From contig CP096137.1 in NCBI GenBank assembly GCA_023213235.1, forward strand, positions 71,587-135,586: a DNA stretch of 64,000 nucleotides. Direction: 5' to 3'. Both the position numbers and the translations under genes were made by a program. The notes beneath the pieces are model-generated. The model was not told the DNA's origin. It did not search any database and was given only the letters and a program-made list of their open reading frames with translations. Of this stretch, positions 1,934 to 63,238 are shown one piece after another. This DNA is from Elusimicrobiota bacterium (GTDB taxonomy: Bacteria; Elusimicrobiota; Elusimicrobia; UBA1565; UBA9628). Each line of letters starts with the position of its first letter. The stretch's first letter is position 1.

Positions 1934-2619
1934 AGTTCTCCGTCGTCGTCGCGGCGCGCAACGAGGGACCGCAGATCGGCTCCTCGCTCAAGCGCCTGCG
2001 CCAGATCTCCCAGACGAGCCCGATGGAGGTCATCGTCGTCGACGGCGGCTCCGACGACGGCACCGTCGAGGCCGCGCGCGAGTGGGCCGACGAGGTCGTC
2101 GCGCTCGGCAAGCCCAATCGCGGCGCGCAGTGGCACGCGGGCGCCGAGAAGGCGACGGGCGACCTGCTCTTCTTCCTGCGCGCCGACGCCCAGCCTCCGG
2201 GCAACTGGCAGCAGGCCCTCGAGCACTTCTGGCTCGCGACGCCGACGGGCGGACTCGCGGCGACGGCGTTCTCCGTCTCATACGGGAGCGGACTCGGCCT
2301 CAATATGCTCTCGATGTGGTCCAACGCGCGCGTGCGCTCGGGCCTCGCCTCCTCCGACCACGGGATCTGCACGACGCCGGAGATCTACAAGGCCGTCGGC
2401 GGCTTCCCCGAGTTCCCCGTGCTCGAGGACCTCGAGTTCTCGCGCCGCCTCACGGCGCGCGGCCGCATCGCGCTGCTGCCCGAGCGCGTCCGCCCCGCCG
2501 CCCGCCACGTGCACTCCGGCGGGCCGGTGTCCTACATGCTGCGCCGCCTGTGGCTCGAGACTCGCTACAAGGCGGGCGCCAAGCCCGAAGCCCTGCTGGC
2601 CGACGCCGCGTCCCTCTAG
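1930..2619 (+). CDS. Family 2 glycosyltransferase.
   Basis: GTG at 1930 overlaps the upstream stop (GTGA). VKFSVVVAARNEGPQIGSSL..VIVVDGGSDDGT..GDLLFFLRADAQPP is a GT-A fold with DxD-like motifs. It lies in frame within ORF 1693..2619. Confidence 0.8.
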
Positions 2620-2628
2620 AATCGTTAG

Positions 2629-2708
2629 AGGGTGTCAGGCCTAACAATTAACGATTCCAATGGATGCGCGCATTCCGGGGAATCGTTAATTGTTAGGCCT
2701 GACACCCT
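2629..2708. repeat. Hairpin element E1 of the GGTGTCAGGCCT family: 30-bp perfect stem with a 20-nt loop.
   Basis: Left arm is AGGGTGTCAGGCCTAACAATTAACGATTCC (2629-2658). The right arm is its exact reverse complement (2679-2708). The loop AATGGATGCGCGCATTCCGG contains the palindrome ATGCGCGCAT. I checked the pairing base by base. Confidence 0.9.
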
Positions 2709-2712
2709 ATAA

Positions 2713-3736
2713 CTATTCGGCCAACAAGACGGGCACGGTGGGGGAGGCGCGTCGGCGGGGAGCTGATCGAAGAAGTCCGAGATCAGCTTGGCGATGAGGT
2801 CGCAGTCCATCGTGTTGCACACGGCCACGCGCATCACCTTGTTGTGCGGCAGGCCCTGCGTGTACCAGACGGTGATGCGGCGCATGTTGAGCGCGGCGCC
2901 GCGGTCGCCGATCAGGGAGCGCTCGAGCGCGAAGTGCTTGAGCAAGGTCTCCTTTCTTTCCGCGACGGAGGGGACGTAGGGAGCGTCGATGCGTCCTTCC
3001 AGCCCGTCGTCGAGGTTCTTGTAGATCCACGGGTTGCCGAGGCCGCCGCGGCCGATCATGACGCCGTCGCAGCCGGAGACCTCGCGGATGCGCTTGGCGT
3101 CGGCGGCGGTGAGCACGTCGCCGTTGCCGATGACGGGGATCTTGACCGCGGCCTTCACCTTTCCGATGGCCTCCCAGTCCGAGCGGCCGGAGTAGCCCTG
3201 CGCCTGGGTGCGGCCGTGGATCGTGACGGCCGAGAGTCCCGCGGCCTCGGCCCGCTTCGCCAGCTCGACGGCCTCGTCGCCCGACGGGTCCTTGAAGCCC
3301 TTGCGCGTCTTCATCGTGACGGGAATCCTCGACGGGACGGCGTCGCGGACGGCGCGAAAAACCCTCTCCGCGCCGGCGGGATCCTTGAGCATCGCCGAGC
3401 CCTCGCCGTTGCCGACGACCTTCTTCACCGGGCAGCCGAGGTTCATGTCGATGAGGTCGAAGCCGAGCTCGACGAGGATCACGGCCGCGTCGGCCATCAT
3501 CTTGGGATCGCAGCCCAGCAGCTGCGCGCCGAGCGGCTTGTCGGCCTCGGTCGTGTTCAGCATGCGGCGCGTCTTGACGTTCTCGCGCGTCAGCGACTGC
3601 GCGGACACCATCTCGAGGTAGCACATGCCCAGCCCCTTCTCGCGCCCGATCAGCCGGAAGGGCAGATCGGAGCACGCGGCGAGGGGGATTGGATGATTCG
3701 CGACGGCAGCTCGAGGCTGCCGATCTTCAACGGCAT
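2713..3736 (-). CDS. dusB: tRNA-dihydrouridine synthase (DusB-like). There is a frame break at the G5 run 3683-3687. The 3' end is either 2713 (if the G5 run 2740-2744 is also undercalled) or 2625 as assembled.
   Basis: ATG at 3736 gives MPLKIGSLELPSRIIQSP, then after one added base ..LAACSDLPFRLIGREKGLGMCYLEMVSAQSL.. joins ORF 2625..3626 (DLIDMNLGCPVKKV, TIHGRT, IPVIGNGD). As assembled, the C-terminus reads through hairpin E1. The alternative frame ends ..PTVPVLLAE* at 2713. Confidence 0.8.
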
Positions 3737-48483: not shown

Positions 48484-49202
48484 CAGCGCTTCGGCGGCGC
48501 CGGCGCCTTCGGAGCGGGAGGCGTCAGCTTCGCGGCGGCGATCCAGTCGAGCACGCGCTTGCGGGTGCCGGCGTCGGCGAGCATGCGCACCCCGTGCCCG
48601 GTGGGCGCGTAGTGGACGGCGGCGGTCTTCTCCGCCTCGGCGCGGCGCGCGGCCATGTAGGCGTAGCCGTCGTCGGGGGCGGCGGCGACGAGCGCGGGCA
48701 GCCCCTTGCGAAAGGACATCGGCACGCCGCGGTAGTTCTCGGCGGGCGACAGCATGAGGACGAAGGGCGCGGACTTGCGCTCGACGGCGACGGCCGCGGC
48801 CAGGTTCGCGCCGATCGAGGCGCCGCCGAAGGCGATGCGCCAGTCCGGGACGCCCTTTCTGCTCAGCCAGGCGGCCGCCGCGCGCAGGTCCTCGGCGGAG
48901 CCGGGCCAGGAGCCCGTCGCGTCGAACCCGGCCCAGCCCGTCGAGCCCGGAGGACCCGAGAGGCTGCCGGCGTGGCCGCGCAGGTCGACGGCGAGCGTGC
49001 CGATCCCGCGGCGCGCGAGGTCCTCGGCGAGGCCGTTCCACTCGTCGCCCGCGCTCCCGACCCCGTGGGCGAGCACGACGACCGCCTTGCCGGAGGCCGC
49101 GGGACGGTACTTGGCCTGGATCGTCCAGCCGTCCTTCGTCGCGAACGAGACGGCCTGCGCGGCCGCGAGCGCGACGGCGGCCGCCGCGGCGGCTACCGGC
49201 AT
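48483..49202 (-). CDS. Alpha/beta-fold hydrolase.
   Basis: Tail of ORF 48483..49760: MPVAAAAAAVALAAAQA..VVVLAHGVGS..IAFGGASIGAN (GxSxG)..TGHG. Confidence 0.7.
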   Translation of the reverse strand: MPVAAAAAAVALAAAQAVSFATKDGWTIQAKYRPAASGKAVVVLAHGVGSAGDEWNGLAEDLARRGIGTLAVDLRGHAGSLSGPPGSTGWAGFDATGSWPGSAEDLRAAAAWLSRKGVPDWRIAFGGASIGANLAAAVAVERKSAPFVLMLSPAENYRGVPMSFRKGLPALVAAAPDDGYAYMAARRAEAEKTAAVHYAPTGHGVRMLADAGTRKRVLDWIAAAKLTPPAPKAPAPPKR

Positions 49203-49837
49203 CGCATCGCGAGCTCGTAGCCCGCGTTGTAGACGGAGAAGACGGAGTCCTGCACGCGCACGACGGAGCGCATGAGCTCCTCGGTCTTGTGCGTGAAGTG
49301 CTTGTCGTTGGCCCACTTGTTCTCGCCGACGACGCCGCGCACGGAGGTCGTGTCGAGGTAGAGCGCGTTGAGCGTGAGCTGGAGCTGCTGGACCTGGCCG
49401 AGGATCAGAAGGCCGGCCTGGTACATCTCGGGATCCGGCAGCGCCTGCGACTGCGCGATGCGCTGGCGCGCCGTCAGATAGTAAAGGTTCTGTCGCACCT
49501 GGTCGCAGCCGGTCGTCAGGGTCTCGAAGTTGTTGAGGATCGTGTCCAGGCTCGGCTGGGGATCGGGCTGGGCGTAGGCGTAGCGCAGGTTGTCGCCCTG
49601 CGCCTTGACGTACTGATGGATCTGCCCGAGGTTGGCCACCTGCTGGGCGACCTGCCCGGCGATGGCCTTCATCACCGGGATCATCATCGGGTCGCTCTGC
49701 TGGCGGGCGAGCCGGTCGCGCGCGGTCAGCAGGGCGTCCCAGAAGAAGCGCTCCTGCCACAGCGTCGGGGCCTGGTCGATGGCGGCCGCCGGAAGGGCCG
49801 TGCCGGCCAGGAAGAGGACGAGGAGCGCGCGCCGCAT
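49193..49837 (-). CDS. Hypothetical secreted protein (214 aa).
   Basis: ORF 49193..49837. Signal peptide is MRRALLVLFLAGTALPAAA. TATACT (49849-49844) lies 6 nt upstream of the ATG. Confidence 0.55.
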   Translation of the reverse strand: MRRALLVLFLAGTALPAAAIDQAPTLWQERFFWDALLTARDRLARQQSDPMMIPVMKAIAGQVAQQVANLGQIHQYVKAQGDNLRYAYAQPDPQPSLDTILNNFETLTTGCDQVRQNLYYLTARQRIAQSQALPDPEMYQAGLLILGQVQQLQLTLNALYLDTTSVRGVVGENKWANDKHFTHKTEELMRSVVRVQDSVFSVYNAGYELAMRCR

Positions 49838-49856
49838 TCCTTTAGTATACCCGATC

Positions 49857-49934
49857 TGGTGTCAGGCCTCCCACTTTCCCACTTTTCTAGGGGGAGTATT
49901 CTGGAAAAGTGGGAAAGTGGGAGGCCTGACACCA
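49857..49934. repeat. Hairpin element E2 of the GGTGTCAGGCCT family: 31-bp perfect stem with a 16-nt loop.
   Basis: TGGTGTCAGGCCTCCCACTTTCCCACTTTTC (49857-49887) pairs exactly with 49904-49934. The loop is TAGGGGGAGTATTCTG. I checked the pairing base by base. Confidence 0.9.
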
Positions 49935-49949
49935 CAGGGCGTCTTTTGG

Positions 49950-49955
49950 TACCAT
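49950..49955 (+). promoter_or_regulatory. -10-like hexamer of the DoxX gene, with leaderless geometry.
   Basis: TACCAT, 6 nt, ATG at 49962. CTGACA (49926-49931, inside the E2 right terminus) lies 18 nt upstream. Confidence 0.4.
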
Positions 49956-49961
49956 CCGCGA

Positions 49962-50338
49962 ATGGACACCGACGACGCGCTGGCCCTCGTGGGACGCCTG
50001 TTCGTCGCGATCATCTTCCTGGCGTCCGCGTTCGGCAAGATCACGAACTTCGACGGGACGCTCCAGTTCATGGAGTCCCACGGGATGCCGGCGGCCAACC
50101 TGCTCTGCGTCGCGTCGATCGCGATCGAGGCCCTCGGGGCGATCTCCATCATTCTCGGCTACAAGTCGCGCTGGGGGCCGCCGCGCTGGCCGCCTTCCTG
50201 ATCGCGGCGACGTGGGTGTTCCACACCGCGCCCGACCAGCGCATCCAGCTCCTCAAGAACCTCGCGATTCTCGGCGGCCTGCTCAACCTCATCGCGCACG
50301 GCCCCGGCGACATCAGCCTCGAGGGGAGGAAGGCGTGA
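49962..50338 (+). CDS. DoxX family membrane protein, with a frame break at the G5 run 50173-50177.
   Basis: MDTDDALALVGRLFVAIIFLASAFGKI.. (tail of ORF 49632..50201) joins ..GAAALAAFLIAATWVFH..LKNLAILGGLL.. (tail of ORF 49289..50338) after one added G. Confidence 0.75.
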
Positions 50339-61629: not shown

Positions 61630-62264
61630 CGCCCGTGCCCCGTCAGCGGGTCGTCGCCGAGTTCGTTGGCGTCGGATGCGCCGCCGGAGAAGCCGGCGGC
61701 CTTCAGGGTCGCCGAGACGCTCGCGATCGCCGCGCACAACCCGCCCGGCACGTCGCCCTTGGCGGCGAGCGTCGTCATCGCCGCGGCCGCCTCGTCCCAC
61801 TTCGAATCGGGTATCTTGCCGCGCACGCCCTCGTCGGCGAGCACGACGACCCGCCGCTCGAGCAGGCTCGCGAAGATCAGCACGCCGCGCCGGGTCGCGG
61901 CCCGCGCGACGCCGTGGTCGAAGAAGACCTCCTTCGCCCGCCGCTCGACGGCGGCCTTCATGCGGGTCCCTCCGATCAGCCCGCGCTTGAGCGGCGCGAA
62001 CCAGCGCCCGAGGAGGGCGCCCGCCAGGCCGGCGGCCGGGACCCACAGGATCTGCCGCGCCAACGGCTGCCACGGAGGCGCGTACACGTCGGCGAGGAAC
62101 AGGACCGCGACGGCGAGGCTCATGCCCACGCCCGCGCCCGCCCAGATCGACTCCGGGTAAGGGCTGCTCTGCGCGAACACGCAGGGCACGATCTCGGCGG
62201 CCAGCCCCGCCTCCGCCTTCTTCACGGCATCCTTCACCCGCTCCCGTTCTTGATCGGTCAGCAT
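61626..62264 (-). CDS. Membrane protein with a split TPM/DUF477-like domain.
   Basis: ORF 61626..62264: MLTDQERERVKDAVKKAEAGLAAEIVPCVF.., two TM segments, then ..RRGVLIFASLLERRVVVLADEGV... Confidence 0.55.
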   Translation of the reverse strand: MLTDQERERVKDAVKKAEAGLAAEIVPCVFAQSSPYPESIWAGAGVGMSLAVAVLFLADVYAPPWQPLARQILWVPAAGLAGALLGRWFAPLKRGLIGGTRMKAAVERRAKEVFFDHGVARAATRRGVLIFASLLERRVVVLADEGVRGKIPDSKWDEAAAAMTTLAAKGDVPGGLCAAIASVSATLKAAGFSGGASDANELGDDPLTGHGR

Positions 62265-62300: not shown

Positions 62301-62384
62301 GGTGTCAGGCCTTGCACTCTTGCAAACTTGGCCGCTCCGTTCCGCATAAGACCGGAACTTTGCAAGAGTGCAAGGCCTGACACC
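62301..62384. repeat. Hairpin element E3 of the GGTGTCAGGCCT family: 26-bp perfect stem with a 32-nt loop.
   Basis: GGTGTCAGGCCTTGCACTCTTGCAAA (62301-62326) pairs exactly with 62359-62384. The loop is CTTGGCCGCTCCGTTCCGCATAAGACCGGAAC. Confidence 0.9.
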
Positions 62385-62410: not shown

Positions 62411-63238
62411 ATGGCGGTGCTCGAGGCGCGCAATCTCTTCAAGCGGTATCCGAAGGCGAAGGTCAACGCCGTCGACGGGCTGTCGCTGTCGGTGGGGGAG
62501 GGGACGTGCTTCGGGCTGCTCGGGCCCAACGGGGCGGGCAAGACGACGACCGTCGAGATGATGATGGGCATCTCGCGGCCGGACAAGGGCGAGATCCTCT
62601 ATAGAGGAAAGCCGGCCGGCGCGGAGTTTCGCGAGCGCACGGGCATCCAGTTCCAGGACACCGCCCTGCAGGATCACTTGAAGGTCGGCGAGCTGCTCGA
62701 TCTCTTCGGAGCCCTGTACCCGCGGCGCCTGCCGACGGCCGAGCTCGCCAAGCTCTGCGATCTGGGCGAGCTGCTCGACAAGGACCCGGAGAAGCTGTCC
62801 GGCGGCCAGCGCCAGCGCGCGCTGCTGGCGCTCGCCCTCGTCAACGATCCCGACGTCGTCTTCCTCGACGAGCCGACGACCGGCCTCGACCCGCAGGCGC
62901 GGCGAAACTTCTGGGGCCTGGCGCGCTCGATCAAGGCGCGCGGCAAGACGTTGATCCTCACGACGCACTACATGGAGGAGGCCTACGCGCTGTGCGACGA
63001 GGTCGCGATCGTCGACCGGGGGCGCATCATCGCGCAGGGCCGGCCCGACGCGCTGCTCAAGGAGCACTTCGACGGCGTCACCATCGAGCTCGAGGGAGAA
63101 GAGATCATGACGAGCGACGTCGAGGCGACGCTCGACGAGCTGCGCCGGAAGGGGCGCAGCCTGGCGCACCTGCGCGTGCGTCCCCGCACGCTCGAGGACC
63201 TGTTCCTGCGGCTGACCGGCCGGGAGCTGCGCGAGTGA
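62411..63238 (+). CDS. ABC transporter ATP-binding protein (ABC-2 / DrrA-like exporter type).
   Basis: ORF 62411..63238. Walker A is GPNGAGKTT, the signature is LSGGQRQR, and Walker B is VVFLDEPTTGLD. Confidence 0.9.
   Translation: MAVLEARNLFKRYPKAKVNAVDGLSLSVGEGTCFGLLGPNGAGKTTTVEMMMGISRPDKGEILYRGKPAGAEFRERTGIQFQDTALQDHLKVGELLDLFGALYPRRLPTAELAKLCDLGELLDKDPEKLSGGQRQRALLALALVNDPDVVFLDEPTTGLDPQARRNFWGLARSIKARGKTLILTTHYMEEAYALCDEVAIVDRGRIIAQGRPDALLKEHFDGVTIELEGEEIMTSDVEATLDELRRKGRSLAHLRVRPRTLEDLFLRLTGRELRE

Follow-up and report, generated by a model that had tools for sequence, protein, structure and literature searches.

The hairpin E2 occupies positions 49857 to 49934 of a 64,000-nucleotide stretch of an Elusimicrobiota bacterium genome (GCA_023213235.1, contig CP096137.1, positions 71,587 to 135,586 of the forward strand), referred to here as the window. 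Analysis of the window and of related loci showed that E2 is a copy of a dispersed repeat and not a locus-specific regulatory palindrome, and that its ends are identical to the ends of transposase-bearing elements in other genomes. E2 is probably a non-autonomous miniature derivative of a TIRtron, a REPIN-like dimer of terminal inverted repeats (TIRs) which was moved by a Y1 enzyme and landed between two older promoters. It was assigned as a TIR dimer because the same termini bracket Y1/HUH elements of the TIRtron/TIRYT class elsewhere. Genes similar to those of RAYTs (tyrosine transposases associated with REPs, repetitive extragenic palindromes) and flanked by long TIRs were given the name TIRYTs and their elements the name TIRtrons (Di Nocera et al. 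2013, PMC3733652). The class is thus already described and the E2 family is a further member of it.

A dispersed hairpin family with a conserved foot

E2 consisted of a perfect 31-bp stem, extended to 34 nt at 97% in a repeat search, and was located in the 124-nt gap between the CAT at 49835-49837, where a minus-strand gene starts, and the ATG at 49962. Its coordinates, stem and loop and the length of the gap, all reported in a preliminary description of the window, were borne out when the sequence was read. The parts of E2 are as follows.

49857..49934, no strand: complete hairpin (TIR dimer), from GGTGTC preceded by T to GACACC followed by A, bounds taken from the alignment of five same-arm copies
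49857-49887: left arm, TGGTGTCAGGCCTCCCACTTTCCCACTTTTC
49858..49869, plus strand: left universal terminus GGTGTCAGGCCT, the hairpin foot, with a TIRYT-type TIR core (7/8 against GGGGWSAS)
49870..49887, plus strand: left inner arm CCCACTTTCCCACTTTTC, lineage-specific, with two tandem 8-nt units TCCCACTT
49888..49903, no strand: loop or spacer TAGGGGGAGTATTCTG, 16 nt, poorly conserved among copies
49904-49934: right arm
49904..49921, plus strand: right inner arm GAAAAGTGGGAAAGTGGG, the reverse complement of the left inner arm
49922..49933, plus strand: right universal terminus AGGCCTGACACC

The predicted RNA fold of E2 had a free energy of -75.2 kcal/mol (z = -11.6) and was very stable on both strands. 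The DNA fold had -41.5 kcal/mol (z = -11.5). None of 200 shuffles folded as well.

The 12-mer GGTGTCAGGCCT had six matches in the window compared to 0.3 expected, and these were arranged as three inverted pairs, which justified both the label E2 and the mention of a conserved right terminus in the preliminary description. The other two pairs were sister hairpins with the same termini.

2631..2706: E1, inner arm AACAATTAACGATTCC, between convergent genes, with pairing that reaches 2619-2718
62301..62384: E3, inner arm TGCACTCTTGCAAA, between divergent genes

All three copies were intergenic. Their common part was the outer 12 bp only (GGTGTCAGGCCT…AGGCCTGACACC), while the inner stems were mutually unrelated and each self-complementary, giving three arm types in the window: CCCACTTTCCCAC as the abbreviated arm type of E2, beside those of E1 and E3. 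A test for stop-free coding frames was uninformative at 66-70% GC, with spurious open frames spanning 47 of 110 copies, E2 included. In E1, the pairing ran 12 bp past the termini (flanks 2619-2630 and 2707-2718) and the outer left flank GAATCGTTA repeated a part of the inner right arm. The E1 ortholog in the metagenome-assembled genome (MAG) STA_59 was without the 7 extra bases per side. The outer pairing of E1 may be left over from an earlier copy or may have come about by insertion into a palindrome that was already there.

A scan for paired termini with one genome per species found them at at least 107 genome loci, mostly in high-GC Elusimicrobia MAGs. The other hosts were Omnitrophota, Desulfobacteraceae, Planctomycetota, Chlamydiae, Acidobacteriota, Anaerolineales and one gammaproteobacterium. 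Dissection of 110 copies showed a universal 12-bp foot, an inner arm of 13-20 bp and a loop of approximately 2-30 nt. The inner arm was genome- or lineage-specific with one to three arm types per MAG; each MAG had its own dominant arm type. Up to 14 copies of the hairpin were sampled per related MAG. Loops differed even among copies with identical arms. The arms stayed perfect (30 bp in most copies), with compensatory changes, while the loops diverged.

The arm of E2 (CCCACTTTCCCACTT…) was also present at four loci of the Elusimicrobiota MAG GFS_2774. These four copies and E2 were identical from the GGTGTC to the GACACC, and their flanks were unrelated; the common part of their loops was just a weak …AGtAtTCaGG before the right arm. 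Since all five ended identically amid unrelated flanks, E2 is an element with sharp boundaries that occurs at non-homologous loci. No direct repeats that would mark a target-site duplication flanked the 110 copies. The first five flanking bases on each side were A/T-biased, and the flanks sometimes extended the palindrome. In addition, the inner arms had a tandem sub-repeat score of 2.5 compared to 1.0±0.18 in shuffles (shuffle maximum 1.66) and were enriched in two tandem units of 7-9 nt, the cleanest case being E2 with TCCCACTT twice. Single arms from Elusimicrobia were not self-complementary (-2.4 to -6.0 kcal/mol) and had no GTAG. Each arm of the full-length elements of mid-GC hosts can form its own TGTCAGG/CTTGACA stem (-9.1 kcal/mol), whereas Elusimicrobia arms pair only mutually.

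The preliminary description had suggested that the palindrome could extrude as a cruciform or bind a symmetric regulator of both divergent operons. E2 is placed exactly between two -10 boxes, its perfect 31-bp arms could extrude under negative supercoiling and its tandem sub-repeats resemble protein-binding sites. Judged by the fold, cruciform extrusion is physically possible. However, the same termini were present at the 107 or more unrelated loci in many phyla, including between the convergent genes at E1, the orthologous promoters had other arms, a scar or no element (below), and no regulator gene was adjacent. Any binder would be genome-wide, such as a transposase, and not operon-specific. 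Nothing was found in support of a regulator shared by the two operons, and a regulatory site or cruciform switch at E2 is highly improbable.

A structured RNA, either a small RNA, a terminator or an mRNA-stabilising stem-loop, is a very doubtful explanation. It would fit the stable fold, the place of E1 in both 3' untranslated regions of its convergent neighbours and the roles known for REPs (PMC3733652). However, E2 and E3 were upstream of both flanking starts and so are probably not transcribed, and the Watson-Crick, strand-symmetric arms without a single G·U pair in the three window copies are as expected of inverted repeats acting at the DNA level. A known RNA family or an intrinsic terminator was ruled out, with no Rfam match at gathering thresholds, no terminator-like site and no T-tract. 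Other candidates were also rejected. Integron attC sites (R''/R' RYYYAAC/GTTRRRY) did not agree with the GGTGTCAGGCCT termini, the perfect stems, the solitary copies and the lack of an integrase nearby. No arrays and no reverse transcriptase were found nearby, which ruled out a CRISPR-like or retron-like origin, and the lack of target-site duplications around the 110 copies ruled out a miniature inverted-repeat transposable element of a DDE-type insertion sequence.

Termini shared with Y1/HUH transposase elements

The link to a transposase was found on a Planctomycetota contig (L057), where the same termini and arms were approximately 1 kb apart (2155-3197) and enclosed an open reading frame (ORF) of 336 aa. 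The ORF matched Pfam Y1_Tnp at 8.5e-11, above the curated cut-off, and reached 75.2 bits on NCBIfam REP_Tyr_transpos (REP-associated tyrosine transposase), below the cut-off of 80; its C-terminus was DnaA-like. A short hairpin with the same arms was located 1.3 kb from this long element and its loop matched the first approximately 20 nt of the long element's interior. Because of this match, the short form was read as an internal-deletion derivative of the long one.

The transposase family comprised 4432 clusters at E ≤ 1e-10 and more than 7000 by profile, and its members were annotated in Pfam with Y1_Tnp and Bac_DnaA_C. The HUH histidines and the catalytic tyrosine were invariant in the alignment. 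Five further homologs that were placed in genome context (P0019, P0048, P0088, P0359 and P0287) all had an upstream arm with the same core, beginning with GG(G/T)GTCAG(G/A)CC or a close variant. A clear inverted downstream partner was present in four of them, and in the fifth, P0048 on contig L111, the right arm was degenerate. A metagenome scan for the exact 12-mer followed at the expected fixed distance by codons for the conserved N-terminal motif Y-H-x-x-x-R-G-N (YHxxxRGN) found both at at least 120 loci. The typical metagenomic element had an ATG at +53, a 322-aa ORF and an inverted terminus approximately 1026 bp away, and 27 complete elements carried the exact 12-mer at both ends. The planctomycete termini (GGGGTCAG) fitted the TIR motif GGGGWSAS in 8/8 positions. 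Among 25 complete elements, arm divergence tracked the C-terminal domain (partial rho 0.47 with the catalytic domain controlled) more than the catalytic domain (0.24 in the reverse test).

Other observations were made on the full-length elements. Many with identical ends (L119-L238, metagenome) had ORFs truncated at 20-250 aa, and many were on contigs of approximately 1.0-1.5 kb. The whole TIRYT element in mid-GC hosts seems to be multi-copy, decaying and insertion-sequence-like. The inner arms of full-length elements carried an inward-facing TTGACA approximately 29 nt before the ATG, likely the -35 box of the transposase gene. In Elusimicrobia, gene-less hairpins were the only form seen.

Several results weigh against the transposon reading of E2. 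A search with tblastn and the family hidden Markov model in six-frame translations of the window and 118 loci found no TIRYT gene in the window or in approximately 0.8 Mb of Elusimicrobia loci, and no member labelled Elusimicrobia was among the best 120 transposase family members of the profile search. The full-length exact-12-mer elements among the matches listed were all from hosts of 39-57% GC, and two further large contigs carrying family members were from hosts of 45-51% GC. Mobilisation within the genome of the window is therefore unproven and its hairpins could be orphans. In addition, the three window copies had three different inner arms, which would need either several transposases or recognition of the foot only; with three arm types in 64 kb, the genome might encode several TIRYTs. 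The core GGTGTCAG was off GGGGWSAS at one position. The sub-repeat signal was heterogeneous, with none in 10 of 44 arm types, and the domain correlation was confounded, as the C-terminal domain is simply the faster-evolving one.

These results leave some room for an orphan relic, in which the transposase was since lost from the lineage and the hairpins persist as neutral extragenic palindromes. The lack of a transposase in the Elusimicrobia sequence examined agrees with it. TIRtrons and TIR families are often not found in the same genome (PMC3733652), and the remnants and the scar described below would represent ongoing decay. However, the 30-bp arms were perfect in most copies with scrambled loops, and the dominant arm type was specific to each MAG, which point to recent or continuing copying or homogenisation and not to passive decay; the transposase search also covered a small fraction of each genome. 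Overall, a relic is an unlikely explanation, and a TIR dimer moved by a Y1 enzyme is preferred.

Turnover at the E2 site and the flanking promoters

The arrangement in which dnaX and a DoxX-family gene are divergent from the gene for a 214-aa protein was kept in relatives, and the spacer between them was not. When the same intergenic region was compared, the -10 boxes were kept and the spacer held another arm, a remnant, a scar, another palindrome or nothing, as listed below with the identity of each ortholog to the 214-aa protein of the window.

L115/L116, 88%: hairpin with the same foot and the arm GCGAATTCGTTGAATTC, its loop holding another, unrelated palindrome
L243, 94%: both termini and one inner arm only
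L244/L245, 90%: two termini only, fused through the common AGGCCT (aaAGTCAGGCCTGACACtt)
L113/L114, 92%: a palindromic element of another kind
L117, 87%: no element (100-bp spacer)

The right end of the element had the same position in all four lineages that carry it (the window, L115, L243 and L244), 27-28 nt ahead of the ATG. One true case of fused termini was found in 1.56 Mb of sequence, at the E2 orthologous site of L244. Since they were otherwise absent, the site was read as a deletion scar, formed when the AGGCCT repeats on either side of the hairpin base slipped. The opposite reading, with GGTGTCAGGCCTGACACC as a pre-existing palindromic target and AGGCCT as its 6-bp duplication, was rejected because fused termini were essentially absent and because the 12-mer ends transposase elements at unrelated loci. 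The E1 site showed the same behaviour in MAG STA_59, where the same position held a hairpin whose foot was the same and whose arm was unrelated (76% nucleotide identity to the window in the flanks).

Other insertions were observed in the same spacer. The nested perfect palindrome of L115/L116 (1810-1937) had 28-bp arms, GGGGGCGGAGAGACGATGTCCGGCGGGG, 72 nt apart, and the loops of hairpins seem to receive insertions of other palindromic elements. The element in the closest long-contig relative (L113/L114, 1768-1988) was a palindrome of approximately 200 bp whose arms (ACCACAAAGACACCAAGACGCAAAGAG) had an 8-nt periodicity and no GGTGTCAGGCCT terminus. An extra gene for a 325-aa Ala/Gly-rich secreted or membrane protein was present between DoxX and the 214-aa gene in L118 (992-1969). 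This ORF had no Pfam match and was ruled out as a transposase.

The promoter elements on both sides of E2 are as follows.

49844..49849, minus strand: TATACT (AGTATA on the plus strand), predicted native -10 box that belongs to the 214-aa gene and is 6 nt away from the ATG at 49837
49926..49931, plus strand: CTGACA inside the right terminus, candidate -35 box, 18 nt upstream of TACCAT (49950-49955)
49947..49955, plus strand: TGGTACCAT, predicted native TG-extended -10 box of the DoxX-dnaX operon, 6 nt before the ATG at 49962

The two -10 hexamers flanking E2 were present where the preliminary description had placed them and were conserved in orthologs. AGTATA was invariant in 5/5 orthologs, 6-7 nt from the start codon, and the right-hand box was kept as TTTGTTAACAT (TTTGGTACCAT in the window) in 4/5 orthologs, 6-7 nt before the DoxX ATG, regardless of spacer content. 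Judged by this conservation, both boxes are native and older than the element. Of the three options in the preliminary description, the evidence supports the last, a mobile element that carried parts of a promoter into the site: E2 is a dispersed repeat with the ends of Y1 elements, and the candidate promoter part is the -35 box.

For that box, the sequence read and a consensus scan agreed: CTGACA, the 18-nt spacer and TACCAT with its TG-extended -10 gave 9/12 matches, with approximately 0 expected in shuffles, as the sole sigma-70-like site in the region. The preliminary description had proposed that the element supplies the -35 of the rightward promoter, and had noted that the spacing of 10 nt on the left side does not fit; the latter was as claimed. 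The former is plausible at this locus from the sequence, with CTGACA kept 17-18 nt upstream of the extended -10 box in all four lineages that carry the element, the L244 scar included, but it did not extend to the family. Across 217 flanks of the family, TANNNT at 16-18 nt was found in 15, no more than at other offsets, and the spacing at E3 was 15 nt. With no peak at 16-18 nt, -35 donation as a family function was ruled out, and the distance of CTGACA is an accident of the E2 insertion.

The element may nevertheless have been exapted, being mobile in origin and now kept by selection because its right terminus supplies the DoxX-dnaX -35 box. The single sigma-70-like match in the region, the persistence of CTGACA at its distance even in the scar, which has otherwise lost the element, and a TTG-type hexamer at the same position in relatives without the element all agree with such selection. 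A TG-extended -10 box usually relaxes the need for a -35 box. The -10 box at E2 is of this type and is separated from CTGACA by 18 nt, loss of the sequence between the AGGCCT repeats would leave the termini in place even if nothing selected for them, and the family-wide counts and the spacings left of E2 and at E3 gave no support. Exaptation is hence a real but tentative possibility, and insertion of a TIR dimer between two older promoters is preferred as the explanation of the locus.

The genes flanking E2 are as follows.

49193..49837, minus strand: 214 aa, conserved Elusimicrobia protein of unknown function, locus tag M0D55_00660
49962..50338, plus strand: DoxX family, with a frameshift at a G5 run, upstream of dnaX

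The DoxX ORF was broken by a 1-nt frameshift in a G5 run (window 50170-50210) where its orthologs were uninterrupted (RWGAAALAA…). In this 3.8-Mb single-contig MAG, the frameshift is probably a homopolymer sequencing error, and it could alternatively be a genuine pseudogene. Both genes look like genes with leaderless-type starts, as their -10 boxes leave no room for a Shine-Dalgarno sequence. Four hairpin-adjacent genes had a -10-like hexamer just 6-7 nt before the ATG and no Shine-Dalgarno room: TATACT at 49837 (minus strand), TGGTACCAT at 49962 (plus strand), CATCCT at 62264 (minus strand) and TGGTATAAT at 62411 (plus strand). CATCCT was accompanied by TTGACG 17 nt upstream. By these starts, leaderless mRNAs appear to be common in this lineage of Elusimicrobiota.

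Proposed mechanism and relation to known systems

Y1/HUH enzymes, such as those of IS200/IS605 and the RAYTs, act on single-stranded hairpin DNA. The proposed source of E2 would be a TIRtron of approximately 1 kb, with a Y1 (HUH) transposase that has a DnaA-C-like helix-turn-helix tail, between TIRs starting with GG(G/T)GTCAG(G/A)CC. Of this, E2 would have kept no more than the pair of inverted ends with a short spacer between them, and its single strand could then fold into one long hairpin. By analogy to IS200/IS605 and REPIN-RAYT, a TIRYT encoded elsewhere in the genome would recognise this hairpin on single-stranded (lagging-strand) DNA, cut at or near the conserved foot and move or copy the element to extragenic sites rich in A/T. 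The inner arm, which varies and in many cases consists of two tandem units of 7-9 nt, may serve as the address for the variable helix-turn-helix tail; the sub-repeats and the correlation between arm and C-terminal domain are only suggestive of this. Insertion between the two leaderless-type promoters would have occurred before the split of the window, L115, L243 and L244, or repeatedly at the same spot, and the interior would later have been exchanged, halved or deleted by lineage. As a side effect, the outward-facing CTGACA at -35 distance from the DoxX-dnaX extended -10 box may contribute to that promoter.

A more specific form of this mechanism treats the substrate as two modules, with the 12-bp foot as the HUH cleavage and recognition site and the inner arm as an exchangeable address for the DnaA-like tail. 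It is a speculative addition of low probability. The further step, in which the transposase, by a cut at AGGCCT within the foot, exchanges the interiors that lie between conserved feet and so re-uses old insertion sites, is equally improbable as it stands. Together they would explain why orthologous sites keep the foot and change arms, and also the fused-foot scar.

The closest known system is the TIRtron/TIRYT class. TIR families with the motif GGGGWSAS are moderately abundant and occur as singles, dimers or groups (PMC3733652). Most TIRYTs belong to Y1 subclass 2.1 and have Bac_DnaA_C or helix-turn-helix tails, the role of which was left open (Quentin et al. 2018, PMC6006769); in subclass 2.1.2, the Y1 domain is joined to a Bac_DnaA_C tail (PMC6006769). 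The E2 family agrees with this class in its GGGGWSAS-type termini, in ends which, in other genomes, bracket a Y1/HUH transposase of approximately 320-330 aa with a Bac_DnaA_C-like tail, and in its gene-less inverted dimers, three in the 64-kb window. It differs in that GGTGTCAGGCCT, one position off the consensus, is conserved over a longer stretch and in more phyla than described. Elusimicrobia are not among the reported hosts, and here the dimers were abundant with no transposase seen in the loci searched. Tandem sub-repeats of the inner arm and arm-type turnover at fixed sites have also not been described for the class. A literature text search for the 12-mer GGTGTCAGGCCT returned unrelated eukaryotic primer sequences only and no microbial paper.

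In REPINs, the spacers are poorly conserved, the arms change in a compensatory manner and excision leaves a few conserved bases behind (Bertels & Rainey 2011, PMC3116915), and the REPIN type differs between strains in 13/20 conserved extragenic spaces, following the predominant RAYT (REPORTH 2024, 10.1101/2024.10.14.618302). The E2 family is alike in being a dispersed extragenic hairpin of two inverted conserved ends and a variable spacer with compensatory changes, in its connection with a RAYT-clade Y1 transposase, in orthologous spaces that hold different repeat types and in excision that leaves a few conserved bases behind. However, a REPIN arm is a REP palindrome with a GTAG (or CGTC) head, a test which the Elusimicrobia arms fail, and the transposase of TIRYT-type ends carries an extra DNA-binding tail. 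IS200/IS605 elements share the Y1/HUH catalytic domain, the expected single-stranded hairpin substrate and the lack of target-site duplication. Unlike E2, they have a different subterminal hairpin at each end, no TIRs and a transposase of approximately 130-150 aa without a helix-turn-helix tail. Finally, the Correia/NEMIS elements of Neisseria and the outward -35 boxes borne by insertion sequences are comparable in that the end hexamer of a small inverted-repeat element can complete a promoter with a resident -10 box. Those are DDE-mobilised, have target duplications and drive experimentally shown promoters, whereas the promoter activity of E2 is predicted.

Overall, the tempting reading of a bespoke operator or cruciform switch for the dnaX-region genes is replaced by a hairpin of TIRYT-type transposon ends, and the TIRtron/REPIN world is extended to Elusimicrobia. 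The same 12-bp terminus has now been seen in at least eight phylum-level groups, and GGTGTCAGGCCT…AGGCCTGACACC is a simple handle for annotating such repeats in MAGs, whose assemblies they also interrupt. The series of site states, from the full hairpin through a different arm type, a remnant with one arm and a scar of fused termini to an empty spacer, is a natural experiment on hairpin turnover, and CTGACA at -35 distance gives a clean case for whether the end of a Y1 transposon can be co-opted into a promoter. With a conserved foot, a variable arm and a two-domain transposase, the role of the DnaA-like tail raised previously (PMC6006769) becomes directly testable. If the improbable two-module reading were true, Elusimicrobia, from which no REPIN-like partnership is known, would have one that is inherited vertically, and some copies such as E2 would be co-opted as -35 donors.

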